A model generated the notes under the pieces. That model saw only the letters and a program-made list of their open reading frames with translations. It did not search any database and was not told where the DNA came from. From a virus: 64,000 nt of DNA. The stretch lies in IMG/VR virus record IMGVR_UViG_3300028569_000030, positions 1-64,000 of that record. The stretch is one strand, 5' to 3'. Position 1 is the first letter of the stretch. The number at the start of each line of letters is the position of its first letter. Below, piece by piece: positions 546 through 54,602 of the stretch. A program made the translations under genes and the position numbers.

Positions 546-560
546 ACTATAAGTTGTTAA
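546..560 (-). promoter_or_regulatory. putative late promoter motif TTAACAACTTA-TAGT
   Basis: exact copy of the repeated intergenic 11-mer. Confidence 0.7.
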
Positions 561-1466: not shown

Positions 1467-1497
1467 AGTATAAGTTGTTAAGTTAACAACTTAAGGT
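1467..1497. promoter_or_regulatory. back-to-back divergent pair of putative late promoters
   Basis: CAT AGTA TAAGTTGTTAA G TTAACAACTTA AGGT ATG: perfect 11-bp inverted repeat, each arm 4 nt from an ATG. Confidence 0.8.
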
Positions 1498-1650
1498 ATG
1501 GAAGATAACACATTTAAATCATTAGGGGCGTTGTTCAAGAAGGTTTACTCAGATGAACCTATTAAAGCAGTAAAACAGCCCAGAGAAAGATCCAGACGAT
1601 TCAGAAGAATCGGGAAGAAGTTAAAGAAAGAAAAAACGAATAATGGCTAG
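1498..1650 (+). CDS. unannotated 50-aa protein: capsid-N-terminus-like segment plus basic tail
   Basis: MEDNTFKSLGALFKKVYSDEPIKAVKQPRERSRRFRRIGKKLKKEKTNNG; 11/16 identities to MCP residues 5-20. Confidence 0.75.
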   Translation: MEDNTFKSLGALFKKVYSDEPIKAVKQPRERSRRFRRIGKKLKKEKTNNG

Positions 1651-3881: not shown

Positions 3882-3896
3882 TTAACAACTTATAAT
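3882..3896 (+). promoter_or_regulatory. putative late promoter upstream of portal
   Basis: TTAACAACTTA-TAAT. Confidence 0.7.
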
Positions 3897-6374: not shown

Positions 6375-6460
6375 TTTTATAACCAAATTAGTCTATACCC
6401 GAAAGGATTAGACAGTAACGTGTTATAGCAATGTCGCTACACACAATACTAGGAGTATAT

Positions 6461-7411
6461 ATGAACGAAGAAACAAGTGCACCAGCAGAGGTAGTAGAAT
6501 CTACAGAGCAACAACAAGGATCTGAGGGAGTCTCAGAATCTAGTGCGGAAGTATTACAAGATGCAGTTCAAGAAGCTGTTGCCAATGGCGCTACTAAACA
6601 AGAGATTCAAAACCTAAAAAAGAGCTTTGAGCTAAAAGTTAACGGAAAGACTTTTAAGAAAGAGTTTGATCTTTCTAATGATGCAGAAATGCAAAAAGAA
6701 TTTCAAATGGCTGCTGCTGGAAGAGAAGCCATGCAAATGAAAGCAGAGTATGAGAAAGCATTAAGGACTCTAGTTGATCAATTAAAAAATGATCCTCTAG
6801 CTTTAGCTGAAGAGCTTGGATTAAATGCGGACGATATTGCTGCTACTAGATTACAAAGAAAAATAGAAGAAGCTAAGAAAAGCCCAGAACAGCAAAAACA
6901 AGAAAAACTAGAAAGAGAGATAGAAGAGTACAGAAGAAGAGAGCAGGAAAGAGAGGCTCAATTACTAGAGGCACAAAATCATAAGATTTTACAAGAAGCT
7001 CAAGAACAGATTGACACAGAGATTGATACTGCATTATCTGGATATAAGTCTCTTCCTAGTAACAGTCCTATGGTCTATGATTTAATTGCTAAGAACATGG
7101 TATGGGTAATGGATAATTTTGAGCAATTTGGATATGCTAAGCCAGAAGACGTTAGGGTAGAGGACGTTCTTCCTACAGTAGAGCAACAACTAAAAGGTAC
7201 GGTAAATAAGCTACTTGAAGACATTCCAGAAGAGTTTTTAGATGCTTGGATCGGTTCTAAAACTATCGATAAGCAGCGCAAAAAAAGACTAGCTGGAGCT
7301 AAAAATGTCAGTAATATTAATAACATAAAGAAAACAACACAGGAAAAAGAAGAGAAAAAGGAAGATTCTCCAAAGATAAAGCTTAGTGATTGGATGAGAG
7401 AAGGCTTTTAG
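6461..7411 (+). CDS. capsid scaffolding protein
   Basis: acidic N-terminus, LKVNGK segment, long coiled coil, directly upstream of MCP; start moved to ATG 6461 after AGGAG. Confidence 0.75.
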   Translation: MNEETSAPAEVVESTEQQQGSEGVSESSAEVLQDAVQEAVANGATKQEIQNLKKSFELKVNGKTFKKEFDLSNDAEMQKEFQMAAAGREAMQMKAEYEKALRTLVDQLKNDPLALAEELGLNADDIAATRLQRKIEEAKKSPEQQKQEKLEREIEEYRRREQEREAQLLEAQNHKILQEAQEQIDTEIDTALSGYKSLPSNSPMVYDLIAKNMVWVMDNFEQFGYAKPEDVRVEDVLPTVEQQLKGTVNKLLEDIPEEFLDAWIGSKTIDKQRKKRLAGAKNVSNINNIKKTTQEKEEKKEDSPKIKLSDWMREGF

Positions 7412-7422
7412 TTTCTTTAATT

Positions 7423-7437
7423 TTAACAACTTAAGGT
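7423..7437 (+). promoter_or_regulatory. putative late promoter upstream of capsid gene
   Basis: TTAACAACTTA-AGGT followed by hairpin GTGTAGG...CCTACAC. Confidence 0.75.
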
Positions 7438-7599: not shown

Positions 7600-7779
7600 A
7601 TGAGTGCAAACAATACTGTTGCATCTTTAAACGGACTATTTAAAGAAGTTTATAGCGACAATGTAAAAAATTTAGTTCCAGACAGTGCAAAATTAATTAA
7701 AATGATTCCAATGATGAAGAAAGAGAAATTGATGGGTAACCAATTCAATTTCCCAGTAATCGTTAGTTTAGAAAACGGT
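7600..7779 (+). CDS. major capsid protein, exon 1 (60 codons)
   Basis: SD AGGAG; ends ...LENG at the U of a group I P1 U-G pair. Confidence 0.85.
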
Positions 7780-8592
7780 AAAATTTAACGTATTGCCGTT
7801 TTAAAATTGGGCAAAATCGGTGAAGGCTAAGGCAAAAATGAATGGTTTAGTTTACAAAGCTACAAATAAAACAAACGGAAAAGTTTATGTTGGTATTACC
7901 ACTAAAACTTTATCTGAGCGTATATTTGCACATGTAAATAGAGCCAATGTTGAAAAGAGTGTTTTTCAACGAGCTATTAAAAAGTATGGACTTTCTAATT
8001 TTGACTTTTGTGTTATAGATACTGCTAATACAAAAGAAGAGTTGTTTAAAAAAGAACAGCTTCATATCGCAAATTTAAATTCTATGTCTCCTGTTGGATA
8101 TAATCTAACTATAGGCGGAGAGGGTATTTGCAAAATGACTGATCAAATTCGAAAGAAAATATCACAAACTAAAACAGGAAAAAGTGTAGCTAAATTAAAA
8201 GGAAGAGTTCGCTCTAAAGAAGAGAGAATAAAAATCTCTAGATCATTGAACGGATCTCCAATTATTGCTACTAATATAAAAACAGGAGAAATTTTATTTT
8301 TTGAAACAATTCAAGAAGTTAAATTTCATGGGTTTAATCCAGGATTAGTATGTATGGCTTGTAAAAAAAATAGACCACAACATAAAGGATATTTTTGGAA
8401 CTATGCTAATACCGAGGTAAGTCAAGAATTAAAAACTCTTGAGCACCGTAACGCATACCAAGTGAACCTCAGTAATGAGAATATAATCTTGGCACGAGTG
8501 CCCGACAACAATTAACCTTGTTGAAAATGTATGCTGACCTTATGGGAAACTATAAGAAGTAGAGGATAAAAAGCCTTTACGATAACAAAGTG
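7780..8592 (+). mobile_element. group I intron (813 nt) in major capsid gene
   Basis: P1 AAAACGGU/GCCGUUUU with U-G at splice site; P3 TTGGGC/GCCCGA; P7-like GCATAC/GTATGC; terminal G at 8592; removal restores frame (LENG|FTYGG). Confidence 0.88.
7838..8515 (+). CDS. intron-encoded GIY-YIG homing endonuclease
   Basis: GLVYKATNKTNGKVYVGIT, GYN motif, NUMOD3-like basic repeats and C-terminal HTH-like segment; start ATG 7838 or GTG 7820. Confidence 0.9.
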   Translation: MNGLVYKATNKTNGKVYVGITTKTLSERIFAHVNRANVEKSVFQRAIKKYGLSNFDFCVIDTANTKEELFKKEQLHIANLNSMSPVGYNLTIGGEGICKMTDQIRKKISQTKTGKSVAKLKGRVRSKEERIKISRSLNGSPIIATNIKTGEILFFETIQEVKFHGFNPGLVCMACKKNRPQHKGYFWNYANTEVSQELKTLEHRNAYQVNLSNENIILARVPDNN

Positions 8593-9654
8593 TTTACGTA
8601 TGGTGGGGAAGATGGCGATGTTTTCTCTTTAGAAGCTTCTGCTGCTGCTGCTGTAAGAAATGGATCTCTTAAATCTGCTGAATTAGTTCTTAGATCTACT
8701 ATCTCTTTAGGTGCTATCTCTAGATCTATTTCTGATAAAAATGCTTTTGAAAAAGCAACTAAGCTCATCGTTGGAAACATGATGGCTTCTATGTACCACA
8801 GACTTGAAATCCAAGTTATCCACGGACAGTCTTCTACAGGATTAGGCGTTCTTGAATCTATCTCTGGTCTTGGCTTAAAAATCGAAGATCATGAATGGGC
8901 TCCAGGAATTTGGAATGGTTCTAAAGGTGCTAAAATTGAAATCTACGATGCTACTTTAGTTACTAATAGAGGATCTGCTGAAATTACTTCTGTTGATTAT
9001 TCTCTTAAGAAAGTTTTCGTTGATGCTGTTCCAGGTGGTACTGTTGCTACTGACGTTATTTTCTACAAAGGTGCTAAAGGTAAGGAATTCTTAGGGATTC
9101 ACGAAATTTCTCAAAAATCTGGTACTCTTTTTGGAATTGATAACTCTGTTTACGATTTGTTCAAAGGTAACGTAGTTAACGTAGGTACTAACTTTACTGG
9201 TGGTGAAGCTGTTCTTTCTTTTGCTAAAGCTGAAGAAGGTATTGCTGCTGCTATGGATAAGGGATTAGCTGAAGAAGCTTATACTCTTTTAGTTTCTACT
9301 AGAAGCTGGAACAACCTTTTAACTGAACAAGCTGCTAAGAGAATGTATGATTCTTCTTACTCTTCTTCTCAATTAGACCAAGGTTCTAAATCACTTAAGT
9401 TTTACGGACAAAACGGTGAAATCGAAATCATGGCTTCTACAATTGTTAAAGAAGGATATGCTCACGGTTTCGTTAAGAAAGATTTCGCAAGAATTGGTTC
9501 TTCTGATGTAACTTTCCAAATCCCAGGCTACGATGGCGAGTTCTTCAGATTGTTAAATGATTCTCATGGTATCGAGCTTAGATCTTATACCGACCAAGCA
9601 TTAGTATGTATGCGTCCTGCTACATGCGTATTGTTTAGATATATCAAATCTTAA
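8593..9654 (+). CDS. major capsid protein, exon 2 (spliced product 413 aa)
   Basis: position after scaffold, highly biased codons (GCT/TCT/GGT), followed by strong terminator. Confidence 0.85.
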   Translation, partial: FTYGGEDGDVFSLEASAAAAVRNGSLKSAELVLRSTISLGAISRSISDKNAFEKATKLIVGNMMASMYHRLEIQVIHGQSSTGLGVLESISGLGLKIEDHEWAPGIWNGSKGAKIEIYDATLVTNRGSAEITSVDYSLKKVFVDAVPGGTVATDVIFYKGAKGKEFLGIHEISQKSGTLFGIDNSVYDLFKGNVVNVGTNFTGGEAVLSFAKAEEGIAAAMDKGLAEEAYTLLVSTRSWNNLLTEQAAKRMYDSSYSSSQLDQGSKSLKFYGQNGEIEIMASTIVKEGYAHGFVKKDFARIGSSDVTFQIPGYDGEFFRLLNDSHGIELRSYTDQALVCMRPATCVLFRYIKS

Positions 9655-9758: not shown

Positions 9759-11252
9759 GTGTCTGATAAATTTGAAGAATATGCAGTAAAAAAAGCTGGA
9801 AAATACTTAGGATCTTTTACAGATTCCTACAAAAAGCATCAGTATTCTTGTAGCAGCGGACATATTTTCTCTATAAGAAGTGGTGCAATAGCTAAAAATA
9901 GCTGGTGTCCAGAATGTGCAGCAGTTACCAGAAAGCAAGACCTAGTAAAAAGAAATAAACAAAATAATACAGTAATTCAAGACTTTGAACAATTAAAAGC
10001 AGATTTACTCTCTATCCACGGAATAACCATACTAACAAAACAGGACTACTATACTAAATTAGATGTTCTCGAAGTAGTAGACATAAACGGCAAAGTAGTA
10101 AAAAAAAGACTGTCTGATTTATATAGGTTTGGAGCAGGTAGAAAAGAGAACCGATCTATAGAATTTTATAATATCCTAAAACAAACAATGTCTGATAAGT
10201 GTGTACAAAAAGGGTGGGAGTTTATAGAAATATCCCCTCTAGATGTGCTAGGAAGGGTGTACTACTTAGATAAGAATAAAATCCTATGCTCTAAGCAAGT
10301 AGCGTACTTCAATAAAAACAAACATTTAAACAATTCTAGGTGCTCTAGACAGGAAAAAGACATAAGAAACTTCATCTCTAGCATGGGATTTAAAGTAGAG
10401 GCAGGCAAGAGGTTATTTTTGTCTAATGACGAGATCAATAGTTTTGATTGGTATTTTAAACACATACCATCTACAAGTAAAAAGAGATACTGTGAATTGG
10501 ATATATTTATTCCAGATAAGAGCATAGCAATAGAGTTCCATGGGGCAATGTTTCACGATGCTTTTGGAAAAGATGGAGAAAAGCACAAAAGACTTCCTAA
10601 ATTTAAATATGAACTGTGTAAACAAAGAGGAATTAGACTAATTCAAATATATGAGTTTGATTGGACAAATAAAAAAGACCAAATAAAATCACTAATTAAA
10701 AATAGCTTAGGAATAGTAGAAAGAAGGGTATTTGCTAGAAAGTGTGAGATAAAGGAAGTTTCAAACGATGTAGCACAATCTTTTTATGCCCAGTATCATC
10801 TAAAAGGAAGATCCCCAACATCTATATTCCACAAAGGATTGTATCTAGATAAAGAACTACTTATGGTTATTAGTGTTGGAAAAGAGGGAAGAGGGGCTAC
10901 AGACAGATATTCGGTAACTAGGATGTGCGTAAAAGCAGGAATTCAGGTTGTAGGCGGATTGTCTAGGTTGACTAGTTATATCCTAAATAAATACAAAGAA
11001 CTTAGCACTTTGATAGACCTTTTGACTTTTAACGGTAATTCTTGGATTACCTCTGGTTGGAAAATCCATAGGGTAAATAGGCCAACCTACGTATACTTTG
11101 ACAAGGAAAAGAGGTGTAAAGTAGATAAGCAGAAGTTTTCTAGTGTTAAAAATGAGTCTACTGCTGTAAAAAACACCAATAAGTACTGCCAATTGTGGGA
11201 CTGCGGTAAGCTGAGATTAATTATTAGTATTGACACTAATAGTACTGTGTGA
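9759..11252 (+). CDS. Hef-like free-standing endonuclease (Zn ribbon + Vsr-like PD-(D/E)XK + GNAT/Mom-like C-domain)
   Basis: CSSGH...WCPEC; ELDIFIPDKSIAIEFHGAMFH; ARKCEIKEV...VVGGLSRL...WDCG. Confidence 0.75.
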   Translation: MSDKFEEYAVKKAGKYLGSFTDSYKKHQYSCSSGHIFSIRSGAIAKNSWCPECAAVTRKQDLVKRNKQNNTVIQDFEQLKADLLSIHGITILTKQDYYTKLDVLEVVDINGKVVKKRLSDLYRFGAGRKENRSIEFYNILKQTMSDKCVQKGWEFIEISPLDVLGRVYYLDKNKILCSKQVAYFNKNKHLNNSRCSRQEKDIRNFISSMGFKVEAGKRLFLSNDEINSFDWYFKHIPSTSKKRYCELDIFIPDKSIAIEFHGAMFHDAFGKDGEKHKRLPKFKYELCKQRGIRLIQIYEFDWTNKKDQIKSLIKNSLGIVERRVFARKCEIKEVSNDVAQSFYAQYHLKGRSPTSIFHKGLYLDKELLMVISVGKEGRGATDRYSVTRMCVKAGIQVVGGLSRLTSYILNKYKELSTLIDLLTFNGNSWITSGWKIHRVNRPTYVYFDKEKRCKVDKQKFSSVKNESTAVKNTNKYCQLWDCGKLRLIISIDTNSTV

Positions 11253-12345: not shown

Positions 12346-12360
12346 TTAACAACTTATAGT
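12346..12360 (+). promoter_or_regulatory. putative late promoter
   Basis: TTAACAACTTA-TAGT followed directly by ATG. Confidence 0.7.
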
Positions 12361-16746: not shown

Positions 16747-16944
16747 ATGAAAAGAGAATTATACCAGCAATTAATGGAAGAGTTAGAAAAAGAAGATGGT
16801 CAACCAGTTGGAATGGAAGCTCCAATTCATAGGTCCCCAATTCAAGTTCTAGAGGGCGAGTACACTAGTCCTGAAATGCAACTAAAACCAGAACCTACTC
16901 CATCAGTATTTGAAAGGATTAAGCAACGGTTAATGAACAAATAG
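16747..16944 (+). CDS. small hypothetical protein
   Basis: acidic body, C-terminal FERIKQRL. Confidence 0.6.
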   Translation: MKRELYQQLMEELEKEDGQPVGMEAPIHRSPIQVLEGEYTSPEMQLKPEPTPSVFERIKQRLMNK

Positions 16945-26919: not shown

Positions 26920-26934
26920 TTAACAACTTATACT
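26920..26934 (+). promoter_or_regulatory. putative late promoter
   Basis: TTAACAACTTA-TACT. Confidence 0.7.
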
Positions 26935-33089: not shown

Positions 33090-33104
33090 TTAACAACTTA
33101 ATAT
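33090..33104 (+). promoter_or_regulatory. putative late promoter abutting ATG
   Basis: TTAACAACTTA-ATAT-ATG. Confidence 0.75.
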
Positions 33105-47910: not shown

Positions 47911-50900
47911 TTAATGAGCGTCTTTTAAGTTAGTTCCTATAACTGCTGGAGCTTTTAGTGCGATAGATAGTCTGTAGTTGTTTTCCATAATGTCTTGAAC
48001 AATCTGTCTACATTCTTCTGCCTTAGATTTAGGAGCATCTATAACCAATTGATCGTGGATATTTAAAATAACTAATGCATCTATACTTCTTTTTTTGAAC
48101 TCTCTATTAATCTGTATTGCTGCCATATTTACTATGCTAGCAGCCAGTCCTTGTATTTGTACGTTCTTAGCGTTATTTAGCCCGTTTTTGTAATCTTTGT
48201 ACCATCCCTCAACTATCTCTGGCTCATACTTTTTCTTTAGTGCATTTTTGTATTTATAATCTAGAAGCTTATCACCATGTATCCTATACAATTCTTTAAC
48301 TGCTGGAAGATGTCGTATTCTTCCTGTTTCTATTTTTATATATCCATTGGCTTTAACAAAATACTCTGATTTTTTCATCCATTCTTTTAGCTTAGGAAAT
48401 CCATTTAAGTAACCATTGATAAGAACCTGGGCTTCTTCTGTAGTTACGTTTAGAGTTTTACCTAGAGCATACGCGCCCATTCCATACGGGACCCCAAGAC
48501 TGTAAGCTTTTGAAAACGATCTTTTTGGTTTATTTACTTTTCCTAAATAATTAGGGGCGTTTTTATCAGCACTAACATCTTTTAATTTTTCCGTGGCTAT
48601 AGCAATTGTAGAATAAAAGTCATATCCTTTTCTAAAAATATCTCGTAGCCCTTCGTCTCCAGAAACGTGAGAAAAGCAATTATGAACTCTTATGTTATCG
48701 CATATAAACTCTTCTACTCCGTCTACCGTAATATCTACCATGTCTCGCTGTTCTTTTTTATTTACTTCCAAAACTATAGCATCTGGAGATTTTAACTTTC
48801 CAATTTTTGATTTTGTAAATATTTTTTTTCTTTCACAAGCAATAAAATTGTATAACTTATAATCTACTAGCTTATTAATACTAATAGCTGTAAATCTAAT
48901 TTGGTACACTTTATGAACACCTTTGTGAGCTTTACCTATTCTGCCATCTAGTCCTAGAGTATTACCTAAACTACAAATGTCAGATGCTAATTTTGCAGAT
49001 TTAGTTGATATAGATAACTCACTCTTTTTTTGATTAAAAGTTCCGTCGGTATCTATAAGTCCCGCTAAAAAAGACAGTCTATTAGCTATACTAGATGTCA
49101 TTATATAATCTGGTATATGAAATTTTTTACTCCTATCATCCATCATATCAAAAGTTTGTTTAAATATATCCACCAACCAAGAATCATGGCATACGCAGGA
49201 CTCCATTCCATAGGTTCTACGATCCAAGTAGTCTTTTGGTTTTGCCCCAAAAGATTCCATTATTTCTTTAAATTTAGTAGTAACCATATCAGCTTTTAGT
49301 CCGCATATGCCTACATACTTAGAGGTTGTCGTACATGCAACTCCGTCTCCCAAAAAAGCACCAAGCATCCAACATAATTCTGCAGATAGTGGTAAATATG
49401 AGAACGGTTTATTTGCTCCCTTTAGATATACATTTAGTTTATTGGAATTATTTTGAATTACATTAGTGTTAAATTTACACTCTTCTAGAATGTCTCCTGC
49501 AACAATGTCCTCCGCTTTTTTCCAACCAGTTCCATTTACATAAATTTTATGGTCGGGAGAGCATCTCACTACTCCTTTTTTAGTAATTATTTCTAGCATG
49601 TCTTTTTTTGAATTCCACTTATTAACCAGTTTCTTCCAACCATGAACAGTATTAATATAGTCTCCTACTTCTACTTTAGATATTTCTAAAATTCCTTTAT
49701 CTTTTATTTCTACTTTTGAATCTATACATACACAATGAGGCTCTAAAGCTTCATAGTCATTATCTATAAACACTCGTCCTTCATCAGCTATAAAAAATTC
49801 CCTAATTACATTATTATACTTTAGAACAATCTCATCCAACTCTCCAGTTTCTTTTGGTCTAGGTAATTGTTGCAAGTTAGAAGAGTATCTACCGGAGATA
49901 GTTCTGTGTTGCTGAAAGTTAGGATAAAAGTATCCATTCTCTGATTCATCTAAAAACCTATCAATATAGGTGCCTTTTATCTTTATTAATGAATTATAGT
50001 TACTTAGGTCTCCGGCCCATTTAATGTTTAATACTTTAAACAAATGATCTATCATATCATCATTAAATTGGGCATTACCTTTATCCGTAGTACTTAGTGG
50101 CTTAATTTTCATACACTTAAATACTAAGTCTGCCATTTGTTTTTTAGAGAATATATTTATCCTATTAGTTCCATCTTTTTCGGATAATCTCTGCGCTATT
50201 TCTAGATGATGATTATGCTCTAAGTCTACGTTATTGATAAAATAGTCTCTAACTATATCAGTTTCTATAAGTAATATAGATTTTTCAGTTAGTGAGTACT
50301 TTCCATTCTTAGTTTTTGTAAGGTATTTTCCACAATCAAAGTACTCAATAACTTCCTGAGAAAAAGACCCAGATCTTGTTTGTGGGTAATCTACAATAAG
50401 ATTTTCATTTTTCCAATTTCTAACATCTTCGTTTGATTCTATAGCTGTAACTATTCTATCTTCTAGCATTGCTAGATCGCTCTCAATATTCGCTTTCGTT
50501 TTTAAAATAAGCGGTATGTCTAACTTTATTGAGTTATTTTCCATAGGAATAGTCACTTCTTTATATAGAGGCATAACTTCCTTGTCATAGAAAAATTCTT
50601 CTAGTTTATCCTTAGATAGACGATCTCTAACTAGGATAGCTAGTCTTAGCGTTAAATCAGCATCAGATGCAGCATACTTTCCCATTACTTCTAAATCAGC
50701 TTTATACATTTCATAATTTGTTTTAGTTATGCTACCGCCATTCATTTTTATATTATGCTTAAGTTCTATTTGCTCCTCATTAGCATCCGATTCTACATCT
50801 AATCCTATTTTTGATTGGTATTGCTTGGCAACTTCTTTCAAAGCAAAATTACCCTCTTCCTCTACAGTGTGTTTCATTAACATAATATCGGCAAGCAACG

Positions 50901-51249
50901 AGTCTATCAAATCAACTTTTAAATCATTTTTAACAATGCTTATATCGTAAGCAGCGTTCCACATTAACAATTCTTTTTTAGATAAAAGATGCAGAAGCTC
51001 TAATATGTCCGAATCAGGAAGAACTTGCTCTAGCTTTTCTGTTTCTTTATTCCAAGAAAATCTAGGGGCATAAAATGATTCTCCAGGACTTCCGCAAAAA
51101 GAAATACCAATAACCTGAGACTTTCTTACATTTAGTCCAGTAGTCTCTGTATCAAATCCTAAGAATAGACTTTTTTCTATGTGAAGTTTTGCTTGTGTTA
51201 ACTGTGCTTGTGTGGTGATTATAGTGTAGTTTTTATTAGTATGTGTCAT
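47911..51249 (-). CDS. polA: family A DNA polymerase (3'-5' exo + pol) with intein
   Basis: FDTETTGL, SGRYSS, DYEALEPH, YGMG, IQG.AA, IHDQ. Confidence 0.95.
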   Translation of the reverse strand: MTHTNKNYTIITTQAQLTQAKLHIEKSLFLGFDTETTGLNVRKSQVIGISFCGSPGESFYAPRFSWNKETEKLEQVLPDSDILELLHLLSKKELLMWNAAYDISIVKNDLKVDLIDSLLADIMLMKHTVEEEGNFALKEVAKQYQSKIGLDVESDANEEQIELKHNIKMNGGSITKTNYEMYKADLEVMGKYAASDADLTLRLAILVRDRLSKDKLEEFFYDKEVMPLYKEVTIPMENNSIKLDIPLILKTKANIESDLAMLEDRIVTAIESNEDVRNWKNENLIVDYPQTRSGSFSQEVIEYFDCGKYLTKTKNGKYSLTEKSILLIETDIVRDYFINNVDLEHNHHLEIAQRLSEKDGTNRINIFSKKQMADLVFKCMKIKPLSTTDKGNAQFNDDMIDHLFKVLNIKWAGDLSNYNSLIKIKGTYIDRFLDESENGYFYPNFQQHRTISGRYSSNLQQLPRPKETGELDEIVLKYNNVIREFFIADEGRVFIDNDYEALEPHCVCIDSKVEIKDKGILEISKVEVGDYINTVHGWKKLVNKWNSKKDMLEIITKKGVVRCSPDHKIYVNGTGWKKAEDIVAGDILEECKFNTNVIQNNSNKLNVYLKGANKPFSYLPLSAELCWMLGAFLGDGVACTTTSKYVGICGLKADMVTTKFKEIMESFGAKPKDYLDRRTYGMESCVCHDSWLVDIFKQTFDMMDDRSKKFHIPDYIMTSSIANRLSFLAGLIDTDGTFNQKKSELSISTKSAKLASDICSLGNTLGLDGRIGKAHKGVHKVYQIRFTAISINKLVDYKLYNFIACERKKIFTKSKIGKLKSPDAIVLEVNKKEQRDMVDITVDGVEEFICDNIRVHNCFSHVSGDEGLRDIFRKGYDFYSTIAIATEKLKDVSADKNAPNYLGKVNKPKRSFSKAYSLGVPYGMGAYALGKTLNVTTEEAQVLINGYLNGFPKLKEWMKKSEYFVKANGYIKIETGRIRHLPAVKELYRIHGDKLLDYKYKNALKKKYEPEIVEGWYKDYKNGLNNAKNVQIQGLAASIVNMAAIQINREFKKRSIDALVILNIHDQLVIDAPKSKAEECRQIVQDIMENNYRLSIALKAPAVIGTNLKDAH
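48679..49734 (-). mobile_element. LAGLIDADG intein (352 aa) in DNA polymerase
   Basis: EPH|CVCIDS...IRVHN|CFS; LGAFLGDG and FLAGLIDTDG. Confidence 0.92.
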
Positions 51250-51542: not shown

Positions 51543-54500
51543 TTAGAATGAGCTGTCGTCTTCCATTTTTGCACGATTCTTCGAATCTCGCAAGTCTTTT
51601 AATTCCGATGCTTCAATAGCTTCTAGCGGCCTAATAGTTCCAGTTAGTCCATCCCAAGCTAAATCGCAAGAAAACAAAGCTCCACTTCTATTTTTTACAC
51701 AATCAATAGAAAAGTATCTGTCATTTTCTGGAGTTCTTGAGCTGTATCCTGGCCTATGTACAGTTAACATAGCAGTTAAAGCTTGTGCTATAGACGAACT
51801 ACCTTTAGCGGCATTATAAGACGTTATTGGCTCGTCAATAGATCCTAGAGCTTTAGACGGCTGTAACATAACAACTACGGCTTTATTAAGATTAATAGCT
51901 ATTTCTCGCAGTCCTTGAATAGCCTCCATGCTAGATTGAGTAGGGTCAGAAAATCTAGACTGTACTAGCTCTAAATAGTCAACTATGACTAATCTGATGT
52001 TAACTCCTAGCATCTTTTCTCTTTCGATAATTGTGTTCTTTATTTCTTCAATTGTTTGCCCTGTTTTAAACACAAAGCTGCACTTTTGATAATTATCTTT
52101 TAGAATAGTTCTGAACTGATCTTTCTTTTGCTCATCTCTATTTTTGAAGAATTCGTACAAAGAATTTCTATTTAGTCTAGTGTGTCTTTGTATTAATTTT
52201 TGATATACATCAAACTGGGACATATCATAACTAAAGAACATGCTATGTTCGCCCATTTTAGAGGTATTATTTATCATAGTAATAGCGGTAGAAGTATTAT
52301 GCGTTACTGTAAAGTCTCCCAATAAGTACCTATGATTTCCATCTAACTCAAACCCAAAGTAATCTCCTACTTCTAATTTTTCTACCTCTATTTCAGTTAA
52401 ATCCTGGTATCTTTGTCTGTCTTGCGCTAAGGCTTTTTTTCTACTCACTCTATTAGGTATGTCGTTTAAATTATCTCCGCTAATGTACAGTCTAAACGCT
52501 TCTGAGTACCCTTCGTACCATTTTCCCCTAGTAAAAGATTTATAGTGTTTCATTTCTCTTGATTTAGTGGCTTTAAATCCTAAACTGCGTATTAAAAACA
52601 AAACCTGATCTGTCGTTTTTTCATTAGATTGGGAAAATTCATACGTTCCTTTTTTATGGTCATAGTATCCATCAGTATCTAATAGACCAGCCAACAACTT
52701 AAGCCTGTCTTCTCTATTAGAAGTAAGATATTCGTTAGGAATATATTTTCCATTCATTAGATTTTTTTGTTTTAAAAAAGTTCTAAAAATGTTATTTTCC
52801 CCAGTTATAGAAATAGTATACACCTTATCTGATCCCGATTCATACTGCTTTAAATTAGCTTTTAGGTTTTTAGAATCTGCCCATCCTTGAATATCTTCAA
52901 TTAGCTCTACATCTTGCTTTGCTATAGTAAACTGTGGTTTACTAGTTGTGCCATCTCCTATCCATACACCTAAGATGTACGGATCTATTTCTAAATGTTT
53001 TTTAGAAAACTCTACTGGAACTTTATATCCCTTTACTCTTTTTTTAAAATCTACACCCTTATTTAAGTATTCCAATAACGGAATGTCAAAAACCTGGCCA
53101 TATTTATACTGATCTTTTGTAGCACTACTTCCTTTAAGACTTAGTATGTGGCTTTCATTAATAACGTAATCATCTCCGTTTTTTTGGTTAATTTTATACA
53201 AAGTTTCTCGTCCTCTAGCTAACGATAAAACTGTTCTAGGAGAAGAGTCATCCCCCATTAATAAATCACCAACACAAACGTCTTCTACGTTTTTTATAGT
53301 TCCATCAAACATTAAAATTTTAGTGCCTTTTCCATGGCACTTGCCCGAGCCAGGGCTCCCTAAAATTCCATATAATCTTCCTACTTGAACTTGCAATTTT
53401 TCATCTAATTGAGGTATTCCAAACTTTAGAGTGTTCTTATCAATGTCTTCCGCATACGATATAAAAGAATCAAATCCTTCGTTAATAGTAACTACTTCTT
53501 TTGAGCTGGTAGCTTTAATGGATTCTGGAATCAATATACTTAATGATTTTAGTAATGGATCATCAGCAGTTGAATAAGTCCCACCTAGCCAATTTGGCCC
53601 AAATACTTGGGATATAATATTATTATATATAAGTTCTTTCGAAAACTTATCAGATCCTGTTCTTTTTGATTGCAGCTCAGCAGCGGCTTTTAAAAAATGA
53701 TATGTGTGAGTTTCGTTAAACCCTTGATTCTTTAGTGTACTAGCCAATATCATCAATGCGTGATTTCTAATGCCACTCTCAAAATAGCCTAAAGAAATTA
53801 AGTATTTTTCAGGAGTAAAGAATTTTGGCTTTATTGACCAATCTACTTCTGATAAATCTAAGCTTAGTGGAACTTTATTTTTCATAGTCTTAACTATTGT
53901 TGGGGTTTTATTCTTTAGTTCTACAATCCGTTCTGGTAGATTTACAACTTCCCATGCGTCTTTTATATCAGAATACTCAAAAGTAGTTTTAGCTAGTTCC
54001 ATAATTCCATCTATAGTAAAGTCCGTTAGTTCTGAAATAGATAAAGGAATTTTGTATAGTCCAGACTTTTGGTGCTTAGTTAACGGTAGTCTTAGTATCC
54101 TAGTTGCATTGTATATTACAGGGTCAGCAGTAGTAAGTCCCTCAGCTAGGCTCATACAAATATTTTTTAATTGATTTGGAGTTAATTGTTGGTCTAGGAT
54201 TTCTACTGAAATATCGAATCCTTTATTCCCACTAAAAAAAATTCGTATGCTACTAGCAGGAAATCCAGAGTCTATTAGTCTGTTAACTAAAGATATTGCG
54301 TCTTTTTGAGCTAATCCTAAGTCATCTTCTGAATCAAAATCCCATACTAATTTTTTACAAACAACGTCAGTTATTCCAGCCACGCTACCTTTGTCTTTAA
54401 AAATGGCTTTATGGGAGTCGTTAAACTGATATATAGATACGTAGGCTTCCTTATCTAAAGAAATTCTGTTATATATATCAGACAAATCTCCGTCATTAAA

Positions 54501-54557
54501 TGGAACTAATGTGCCTTTATCGGCTAAACTAGTGCATAATCTAACATAATCAGTCAT
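51543..54557 (-). CDS. AEP-type primase fused to DnaB-like SF4 helicase, with intein
   Basis: WDFDSED, SGNKG, RILRLP.T.H.KSGLYK; GSPGSGK|T, VIVDYL, KNRSG; start near 54557-54560 after GGAGG. Confidence 0.9.
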   Translation of the reverse strand: MTDYVRLCTSLADKGTLVPFNDGDLSDIYNRISLDKEAYVSIYQFNDSHKAIFKDKGSVAGITDVVCKKLVWDFDSEDDLGLAQKDAISLVNRLIDSGFPASSIRIFFSGNKGFDISVEILDQQLTPNQLKNICMSLAEGLTTADPVIYNATRILRLPLTKHQKSGLYKIPLSISELTDFTIDGIMELAKTTFEYSDIKDAWEVVNLPERIVELKNKTPTIVKTMKNKVPLSLDLSEVDWSIKPKFFTPEKYLISLGYFESGIRNHALMILASTLKNQGFNETHTYHFLKAAAELQSKRTGSDKFSKELIYNNIISQVFGPNWLGGTYSTADDPLLKSLSILIPESIKATSSKEVVTINEGFDSFISYAEDIDKNTLKFGIPQLDEKLQVQVGRLYGILGSPGSGKCHGKGTKILMFDGTIKNVEDVCVGDLLMGDDSSPRTVLSLARGRETLYKINQKNGDDYVINESHILSLKGSSATKDQYKYGQVFDIPLLEYLNKGVDFKKRVKGYKVPVEFSKKHLEIDPYILGVWIGDGTTSKPQFTIAKQDVELIEDIQGWADSKNLKANLKQYESGSDKVYTISITGENNIFRTFLKQKNLMNGKYIPNEYLTSNREDRLKLLAGLLDTDGYYDHKKGTYEFSQSNEKTTDQVLFLIRSLGFKATKSREMKHYKSFTRGKWYEGYSEAFRLYISGDNLNDIPNRVSRKKALAQDRQRYQDLTEIEVEKLEVGDYFGFELDGNHRYLLGDFTVTHNTSTAITMINNTSKMGEHSMFFSYDMSQFDVYQKLIQRHTRLNRNSLYEFFKNRDEQKKDQFRTILKDNYQKCSFVFKTGQTIEEIKNTIIEREKMLGVNIRLVIVDYLELVQSRFSDPTQSSMEAIQGLREIAINLNKAVVVMLQPSKALGSIDEPITSYNAAKGSSSIAQALTAMLTVHRPGYSSRTPENDRYFSIDCVKNRSGALFSCDLAWDGLTGTIRPLEAIEASELKDLRDSKNRAKMEDDSSF
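52296..53339 (-). mobile_element. LAGLIDADG intein (348 aa) in helicase Walker A
   Basis: GSGK|CHGKGT...VTHN|TST; LGVWIGDG and LLAGLLDTDG. Confidence 0.93.
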
Positions 54558-54571
54558 CACATCATCCTCCA

Positions 54572-54602
54572 AAATAAAGGCAGGATTGAAAATCAATCCT
54601 GC
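54572..54602 (-). terminator. terminator-like hairpin upstream of primase-helicase
   Basis: GCAGGATTGA-3 nt-TCAATCCTGC followed on - strand by CTTTATTT. Confidence 0.65.

Follow-up and report, generated by a model that had tools for sequence, protein, structure and literature searches.

The window analysed here is taken from a 79-kb IMG/VR virus record of lake-water metagenomes, of which it covers the first 64 kb; the record is 93% complete and has a G+C content of 34.6%. Directly past a divergent junction, the plus strand opens with a small gene whose product, P0001, contains 16 lysine and arginine residues; an in-frame TAA two codons 5' of its ATG makes position 1498 the earliest possible start. 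The genes that follow in the 3' direction are orf119, orf118, terL, a P22-like portal gene, a 121-aa ORF, the scaffolding protein gene and the major capsid protein (MCP) gene. Pfam matches of orf119 (119 aa) are weak and sub-threshold, orf118 (118 aa), which is kept just 5' of terL in relatives, is a putative small terminase, and TerL carries a Terminase_6N domain. The features on which the analysis bears are the following.

1483-1497, plus strand: promoter-like 15-mer TTAACAACTTAAGGT, directly abutting the ATG of the small ORF
1498-1650, plus strand: small gene, 50 aa, ATG to TAG, product pI 10.6, first plus-strand gene past the divergent junction
1507-1554, plus strand: N-module (residues 4-19), a copy of the MCP N-arm helix, with K14 and Y17 invariant or near-invariant
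1594-1635, plus strand: C-module (residues 33-46), a basic amphipathic helix, F-x-(K/R)-(L/I)-x-K-K-L-K-K, with F35 invariant
6431-7411, plus strand: scaffolding protein between portal and MCP, 326 aa, acidic (pI 4.9)
7600-7779, plus strand: MCP exon 1, with the copied N-arm helix at 7612-7659
7780-8592: MCP insertion, containing a GIY-YIG endonuclease ORF at 7820-8515 (Pfam GIY-YIG)
8593-9654, plus strand: MCP exon 2, following the 813-nt insertion
16747-16944, plus strand: second C-module ORF of the window phage, 65 aa, in the tail/fibre region, ending in FERIKQRLMNK

The phages that carry the small gene are uncultured tailed phages of lake and marine origin, with a P22-like portal and long contigs of ~75-90 kb. 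No near relative of the window phage was found in the INPHARED phage collection, and its only cultured relative, Silvanigrella phage MWH-Nonnen-W8red 1, is distant (27% identical in MCP and 32% in TerL). The window phage also has an unusual load of mobile elements. Its family A DNA polymerase and DnaB-like helicase genes, at 47911-51249 (minus strand) and 51543-54596 (minus strand), both contain intein/LAGLIDADG homing-endonuclease insertions (Pfam Hom_end, Intein_splicing, Hom_end_hint), and a 497-aa HNH-type homing endonuclease ORF (phrog_3339/559) lies directly 3' of the MCP gene at 9759-11252 (plus strand).

The MCP belongs to phrog_14242, with 688 homologues and an HK97-fold model. Uninterrupted homologues are ~412 aa long, and the sequence across the junction of the two exons reads LENG or LEHG followed by FTYGG. 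In the window phage the interruption follows LENG, and with a cut-off as loose as E <= 1 Rfam did not recognise the inserted sequence as a group I intron. Many relatives have MCP fragments of 352-357 aa that begin at the same FTYGG, which marks a recurrent insertion point. A second insertion of ~900 nt is present in the MCP gene of the L009 clade (about 9100-10000 in L009), where it interrupts the codons of the N-arm helix between SLNGLF and KEVY, within the motif that is copied by the small ORF; the same split occurs in L032. The N-terminus is strongly conserved across the MCP family as N-T/D-x-x-x-L-N-G-x-F-K-E-x-Y-A-D, with a K and a Y that vary seldom or not at all. Modelled with AlphaFold2, the MCP of a relative (P0043) has the HK97 fold at a pLDDT of 86, with the copied motif in an N-arm helix at residues 7-18; its best PDB matches are the SU10, Pa223 and A-1(L) capsids.

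P0001 matched nothing in Pfam, PHROGs (E <= 0.01) or the ESM Atlas. A search of 1.8 billion representative proteins returned one full-length homologue, P0002 (49 aa, 52% identical, E 1.6e-5), and a profile built from six members recovered 13 more, 35-55 aa long, among proteins predicted from JGI, ENA and Logan assemblies. In metagenomes the family counts about 30 members. The ORF had been described in the original prediction as hidden, which is not wholly so, since it is already a called protein in the public JGI/IMG collection. Approximately 130 related-phage loci were then taken from IMG/VR by means of MCP and portal alignments. Distinct loci extending 1.5 kb or more upstream of terL numbered 48; the family HMM located the small ORF in 15 of them, and in these relatives it lies on the plus strand, 650-1500 nt upstream of terL, as it does in the window, with a single exception (L138). 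The window ORF itself matches the family HMM with an E value of 9e-20, and dN/dS values for close variants in two subfamilies range from 0.05 to 0.16. Neither TerL alone nor P0002 gave a match when viral contigs were scanned, a metagenome scan gave 11 mostly short contigs with the small ORF on L063 only, a duplicate of the L049 contig, and contigs of four lake metagenome runs at 80% likeness left positions 1498-1650 uncovered and provided no natural variants. By these measures of conservation the ORF is a true protein-coding gene under purifying selection. Because about two thirds of the relatives lack it, the gene counts as accessory and not as core. Its GC3 is 0.41, compared with 0.20-0.30 in neighbouring genes, a value that is drawn from only 51 codons and might point to acquisition from a more G+C-rich relative.

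The resemblance between the small protein and the MCP N-terminus reported in the original prediction was confirmed in its details. Residues 4-19 of P0001 (NTFKSLGALFKKVYSD) align without gaps to residues 5-20 of MCP exon 1 (NTVASLNGLFKEVYSD, nt 7612-7659) with 11 of 16 positions identical; at these 11 shared residues the codon is the same in two and different in nine, and nucleotide identity is 26/48. When P0001 was compared with all six-frame segments of the window, the best local score was 62, at the MCP N-terminus, whereas shuffled sequences scored 41 +/- 4 and none of 2500 reached 62, so that the match cannot be put down to chance. With only the first 22 residues, one shuffle in 4000 attained the score. 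An in-genome HMMER comparison of the small protein with the MCP gave E = 0.0048. At the family level HHalign aligned columns 1-27 of the small family to columns 5-32 of the MCP family, N-terminus on N-terminus, at a probability of 94.7% and E 6.2e-8; one family member, P0126, also matches the major-head-protein family phrog_14242 at positions 3-41. The N-module consensus is M-S-x-x-N-T-x-x-S-L-K-P-I-L-K-E-x-Y-(A/S)-(D/G), and across the small family it retains the two residues, K and Y, that vary little or not at all in the MCP arm.

The differing codons, the HHalign E value and the low dN/dS together bear out the proposal that this is a protein-level copy and not a recent DNA duplicate. It most likely originated when the 5' end of the capsid gene was duplicated, the most economical account because the copy includes the protein start. 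The differing codons and the age of the family show that the N-module has since been maintained at the protein level. The peptides nevertheless differ from the MCP, in that most have replaced its Gly, Ser or Ala by Pro and a near-invariant MCP Asn (N11/N12) is lost, so the peptide and MCP helices are not interchangeable in detail. As judged from these alignments, the small peptides are a distinct orthologous family and not repeated fresh copies of the MCP. AlphaFold2, run on the small family with a 17-member alignment, predicted helices at residues 3-17 and 28-49 with a pLDDT of about 70-80 and no confident tertiary packing. The protein has none of the HK97-fold body (P domain, A domain, E loop), and with 50 aa and only two predicted helices it cannot be a capsid subunit. 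That the ORF is a real gene and that its first helix is homologous to the capsid N-arm helix is, in our assessment, highly probable.

The ATG of the small gene is immediately preceded by the 15-mer TTAACAACTTAAGGT, whose last base is 1497, in agreement with the earlier statement that the ORF has its own copy of a promoter motif. A mirror copy at 1467-1481 (minus strand) abuts the ATG of the divergent ORF at 1215-1466, and an exact repeat of TTAACAACTTAAGGT is found at 7423-7437, ~160 nt upstream of the MCP start. Allowing up to 3 mismatches, the window contains 13 matches to the 15-mer against 5.5 +/- 2.4 expected. The corresponding intergenic motif, TTAACAACTTA(N4), is present in eight copies, at 546-560 (minus strand), 1467-1481 (minus strand), 1483-1497, 3882-3896, 7423-7437, 12346-12360, 26920-26934 and 33090-33104. 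Half of these eight good copies directly abut an ATG (at 1466 on the minus strand, 1498, 12361 and 33105), the last of which begins a 900-aa gene of the window phage, and a related copy, TTAACAACT, lies upstream of the small ORF in the relative L023. The motif copies that abut an ATG suggest a phage-specific promoter that gives leaderless mRNAs.

The presence of the same 15-mer before the small ORF and before the MCP leader would also be expected if the locus were a non-functional relic of a duplicated capsid promoter and 5' gene end. This explanation is extremely improbable and is already contradicted by the conservation data, as about 30 diverged members retain an unbroken ORF with the two modules, its position is syntenic in 15 loci, and dN/dS is 0.05-0.16.

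Co-variation between each peptide and the capsid protein of its own phage, which the original prediction had offered as a check, is not established. In the four nearest pairs (window, L008, L023 and L049) each peptide scores best on its own MCP, a result that ranks first of 24 permutations, and in L023 the string NDFET occurs in both peptide and MCP. Across 10 clade representatives, however, similarity to the own MCP versus other MCPs did not reach significance (identity, p = 0.085; BLOSUM62, p = 0.25). Peptides of the L075 and L102 clades still have the ancestral YADK, whereas the MCP of the same phages has diverged. Taken together, the co-variation data fit selection for a conserved partner surface.

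The second half of the protein was characterized in the original prediction as an Arg/Lys-rich tail, and its composition agrees with this description (16 K+R in the protein, pI 10.6); beyond low complexity, the tail carries a conserved motif. Members of the small family are 35-57 aa long and consist of the N-module (NT-x-x-S-L-x-P-I-L-K-E-x-Y), a variable linker of 0 to ~20 residues, and the C-module, with the family consensus F-x-K-L-R-K-K-L-K-K; the window ORF fits this architecture. A regular expression for the C-module gave 16 matches in six-frame translations of the window and ~60 related loci, versus 3.5 +/- 1.7 in shuffled sequences (~4.5-fold), and the matches are mostly the C-terminal ends of small plus-strand ORFs in structural modules. 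Besides the 65-aa ORF in the tail/fibre region of the window phage, the C-module occurs on a DUF5872-like ORF and on a 64-aa ORF between portal and scaffold in another clade. From this distribution the C-module is a modular C-terminal tag common to unrelated small ORFs of the structural module. Similar basic tails were also observed on unrelated small ORFs of relatives, for example at 8399-8590 in L026, 6507-6656 in L035 and 8515-8769 in L039. In some relatives the small gene is adjoined by small ORFs of phrog_16759 that start with M-P-x-K-S-K (L008 660-812, L009 804-974, L035 6507-6656). A separate candidate, that the C-module is a copy of the scaffold tail or of its ERLRKKRL helix, is kept as a lead: when the small family was aligned to the scaffold profile with HHalign, the top-scoring stretch lay at the extreme C-terminus of the scaffold (D-F-F-x-N-L versus F-x-K-L) and covered 7 columns at E 0.17, a likeness too short for significance.

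The recurrence of the C-module on unrelated small ORFs of the structural module raises the alternative that the product is a packaged internal (ejection-type) protein, in which the C-module would serve as a head-loading or DNA-binding tag of a small cargo set and the N-arm copy would be the payload, acting in the capsid or in the next host cell. The phrog_16759-like ORFs are consistent with this explanation, as they carry the same basic tag at the C-terminus and resemble, over their first ~40 residues, the N-termini of two families annotated as virion structural proteins (phrog_25121 and phrog_22033), and so is the combination of patchy distribution and fast divergence, which recalls the T4 internal proteins, alike in nothing but their targeting sequence (PMC3012670). 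Among the head-module ORFs, on the other hand, Pfam and PHROG searches matched no prohead protease, and the explanation supplies no reason for a payload to copy the N-arm. We regard it as unlikely.

We favour, tentatively and as something short of a probable outcome, the proposal that the small protein is an accessory head-assembly or head-content peptide that makes use of the binding site of the N-arm helix. By analogy with other phages, the free N-arm helix would engage the surface that normally receives the N-arm helix of the capsid protein. This surface would be the capsid-binding element at the C-terminus of the scaffold, for which P22, T7, phi29, SPP1 and 80alpha provide the best precedent, or alternatively the N-arm socket on a neighbouring capsid subunit. 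Docking would bring the peptide into the assembling procapsid or allow it to modulate assembly, and the basic helix could then bind the packaged DNA or the acidic scaffold (peptide pI 10.6 versus scaffold pI 4.9). Since roughly two thirds of the relatives manage without the gene, such a peptide would be an accessory rather than a core assembly factor.

The expectation that a free N-arm helix should bind the scaffold or a neighbouring socket follows from the P22 and 80alpha precedents. In P22 a helix-turn-helix of the scaffold (R293/K296) binds D14/E15/E18 of the coat N-arm, and contact of an N-arm or N-helix with the scaffold is a theme in P22, phi29, SPP1 and T7 (10.1101/2022.12.13.520362). 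In 80alpha the C-terminal amphipathic helix of the scaffold packs on the N-arm helix alpha1, and CpmB of SaPI1 mimics that scaffold helix and competes with it (PMC5644958). The scaffolding protein encoded at 6431-7411, whose C-terminal elements ERLRKKRL and DFFxNL are kept in 27 relatives, is accordingly named as the candidate partner of the N-arm helix. A complex prediction with the MCP, scaffold residues 190-321 and the peptide, all from L008, returned a score of 0.01 and is counted neither way.

The same interface could be used by a non-structural regulator of assembly, which would be absent from virions. In such a case the free N-arm helix would titrate the capsid-binding site of the scaffold, or cap capsid subunits, and so hold back or restrict the nucleation of procapsids while portal and terminase are not yet ready. 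The position of the small gene at the head of the late structural operon, with its own promoter-like motif, would suit a regulator, as would the pairing of an acidic scaffold (pI 4.9) with a basic peptide (pI 10.6), and competition at this interface is known from CpmB and the 80alpha scaffold (PMC5644958). Most relatives assemble without the small gene, which counts against a regulatory role, and we consider it unlikely.

The location of the gene upstream of the putative small and the large terminase genes, together with the strongly basic predicted helix, is also compatible with a small DNA-binding accessory of packaging or genome condensation, for which the likeness to the MCP would be a trace of origin from a duplicated 5' gene end and not a present function. 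This is improbable, as the N-module, including its K and Y, is kept family-wide at a dN/dS of ~0.1, which argues that the N-arm-like helix is itself functional.

Sensors of the CapRel or Lit/Gol type recognise capsid proteins, and the original prediction had accordingly listed a decoy function among its options. The mimicry itself is the one observation that speaks for a decoy against host immunity of this kind. As the known sensors are activated by binding of a capsid element, a mimic would trigger the defence and not block it, and the copied segment is an assembly-interface helix that is conserved across the whole phage group; the decoy explanation is thus very improbable.

Head assembly in tailed phages is generally regarded as a well-catalogued process, with the capsid protein, scaffold, portal, protease, and decoration and internal proteins as its parts, and a conserved peptide that copies the scaffold-docking helix of a capsid has no description in the literature searched. 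If the peptides bind the N-arm site or the scaffold, they would offer a new handle on the tuning of procapsid nucleation, scaffold release or DNA anchoring, and a natural short tag for loading cargo into HK97-fold shells. Even if inert, they would remain a family of small genes under selection, now documented, which routine annotation labels 'hypothetical'.

Among known systems, the basis for the proposed partner is P22. To our knowledge, a free-standing copy of the N-arm has no counterpart in P22 itself. The N-arm helix of the P22 coat protein is the scaffold docking site of an HK97-fold coat that assembles with a separate scaffold (10.1101/2022.12.13.520362). CpmB of SaPI1 resembles the window protein in placing a short helix from one side of the N-arm/scaffold interface on a small separate protein, which in the case of CpmB acts in procapsid assembly (PMC5644958). 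The two differ in that CpmB copies the scaffold side, is encoded by a satellite and redirects capsid size, whereas the window protein copies the N-arm side and is encoded by the phage, with no size redirection indicated. T4 encodes a diverse set of small, often basic head-associated proteins (IPI-III and Alt) that share only a short encapsidation peptide (PMC3012670). The appearance of the window C-module on several small ORFs follows the same logic as this capsid targeting sequence, with the difference that the T4 sequence is N-terminal and removed by the prohead protease, while the peptide shared in the window phage and its relatives is C-terminal, a candidate tag, and has no known protease.

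The closest parallel in design is T4 gp61.1 (NP_049649.1), a 54-aa protein annotated as hypothetical for which no functional paper was found in the literature searched. Residues 2-38 of gp61.1 align with residues 57-93 of gp23 with 17 of 37 positions identical (E 6e-9; in-genome E 1.4e-5), and the protein ends in a Lys-rich (Lys/Glu-rich) tail. Like the window protein it is small and combines a copy of an N-terminal segment of its own MCP with a basic tail, an analogy of design and not of common descent. The copied part of gp61.1 spans the region in which gp21 cuts gp23. The differences from the window family are several. There is no sequence homology between them, as P0001 has no PHROG match at E <= 0.01 and the family members P0124, P0126 and P0133 have no match to the gp61.1 family; gene 61.1 lies beside the primase gene, whereas the small gene of the window heads a structural operon; and in the window family the copy begins at residue 1-4, the scaffold is separate and P22-style, and the head-module ORFs scanned contain no protease match. 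Because the two share no sequence and belong to different types of assembly, the window family represents an independent occurrence of the design.

The small gene is of interest chiefly because its design recurs in T4 and the unrelated lineage to which T4 belongs. Free N-arm copies with a basic tail may be a general type of head component in phages, with more than one evolutionary origin, that docks in N-arm sockets or on the capsid-binding site of the scaffold, an extension that we put forward as speculative and rather doubtful. Its members may be the window family, in phages with a P22-like portal and a separate scaffold, and gp61.1 in the T4-like phages; such peptides could, for example, occupy the vacant sockets at the portal vertex and anchor packaged DNA to the capsid shell. 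The occurrence of the same design in gene 61.1 suggests an overlooked player in head assembly, and T4 makes the question testable at the bench.
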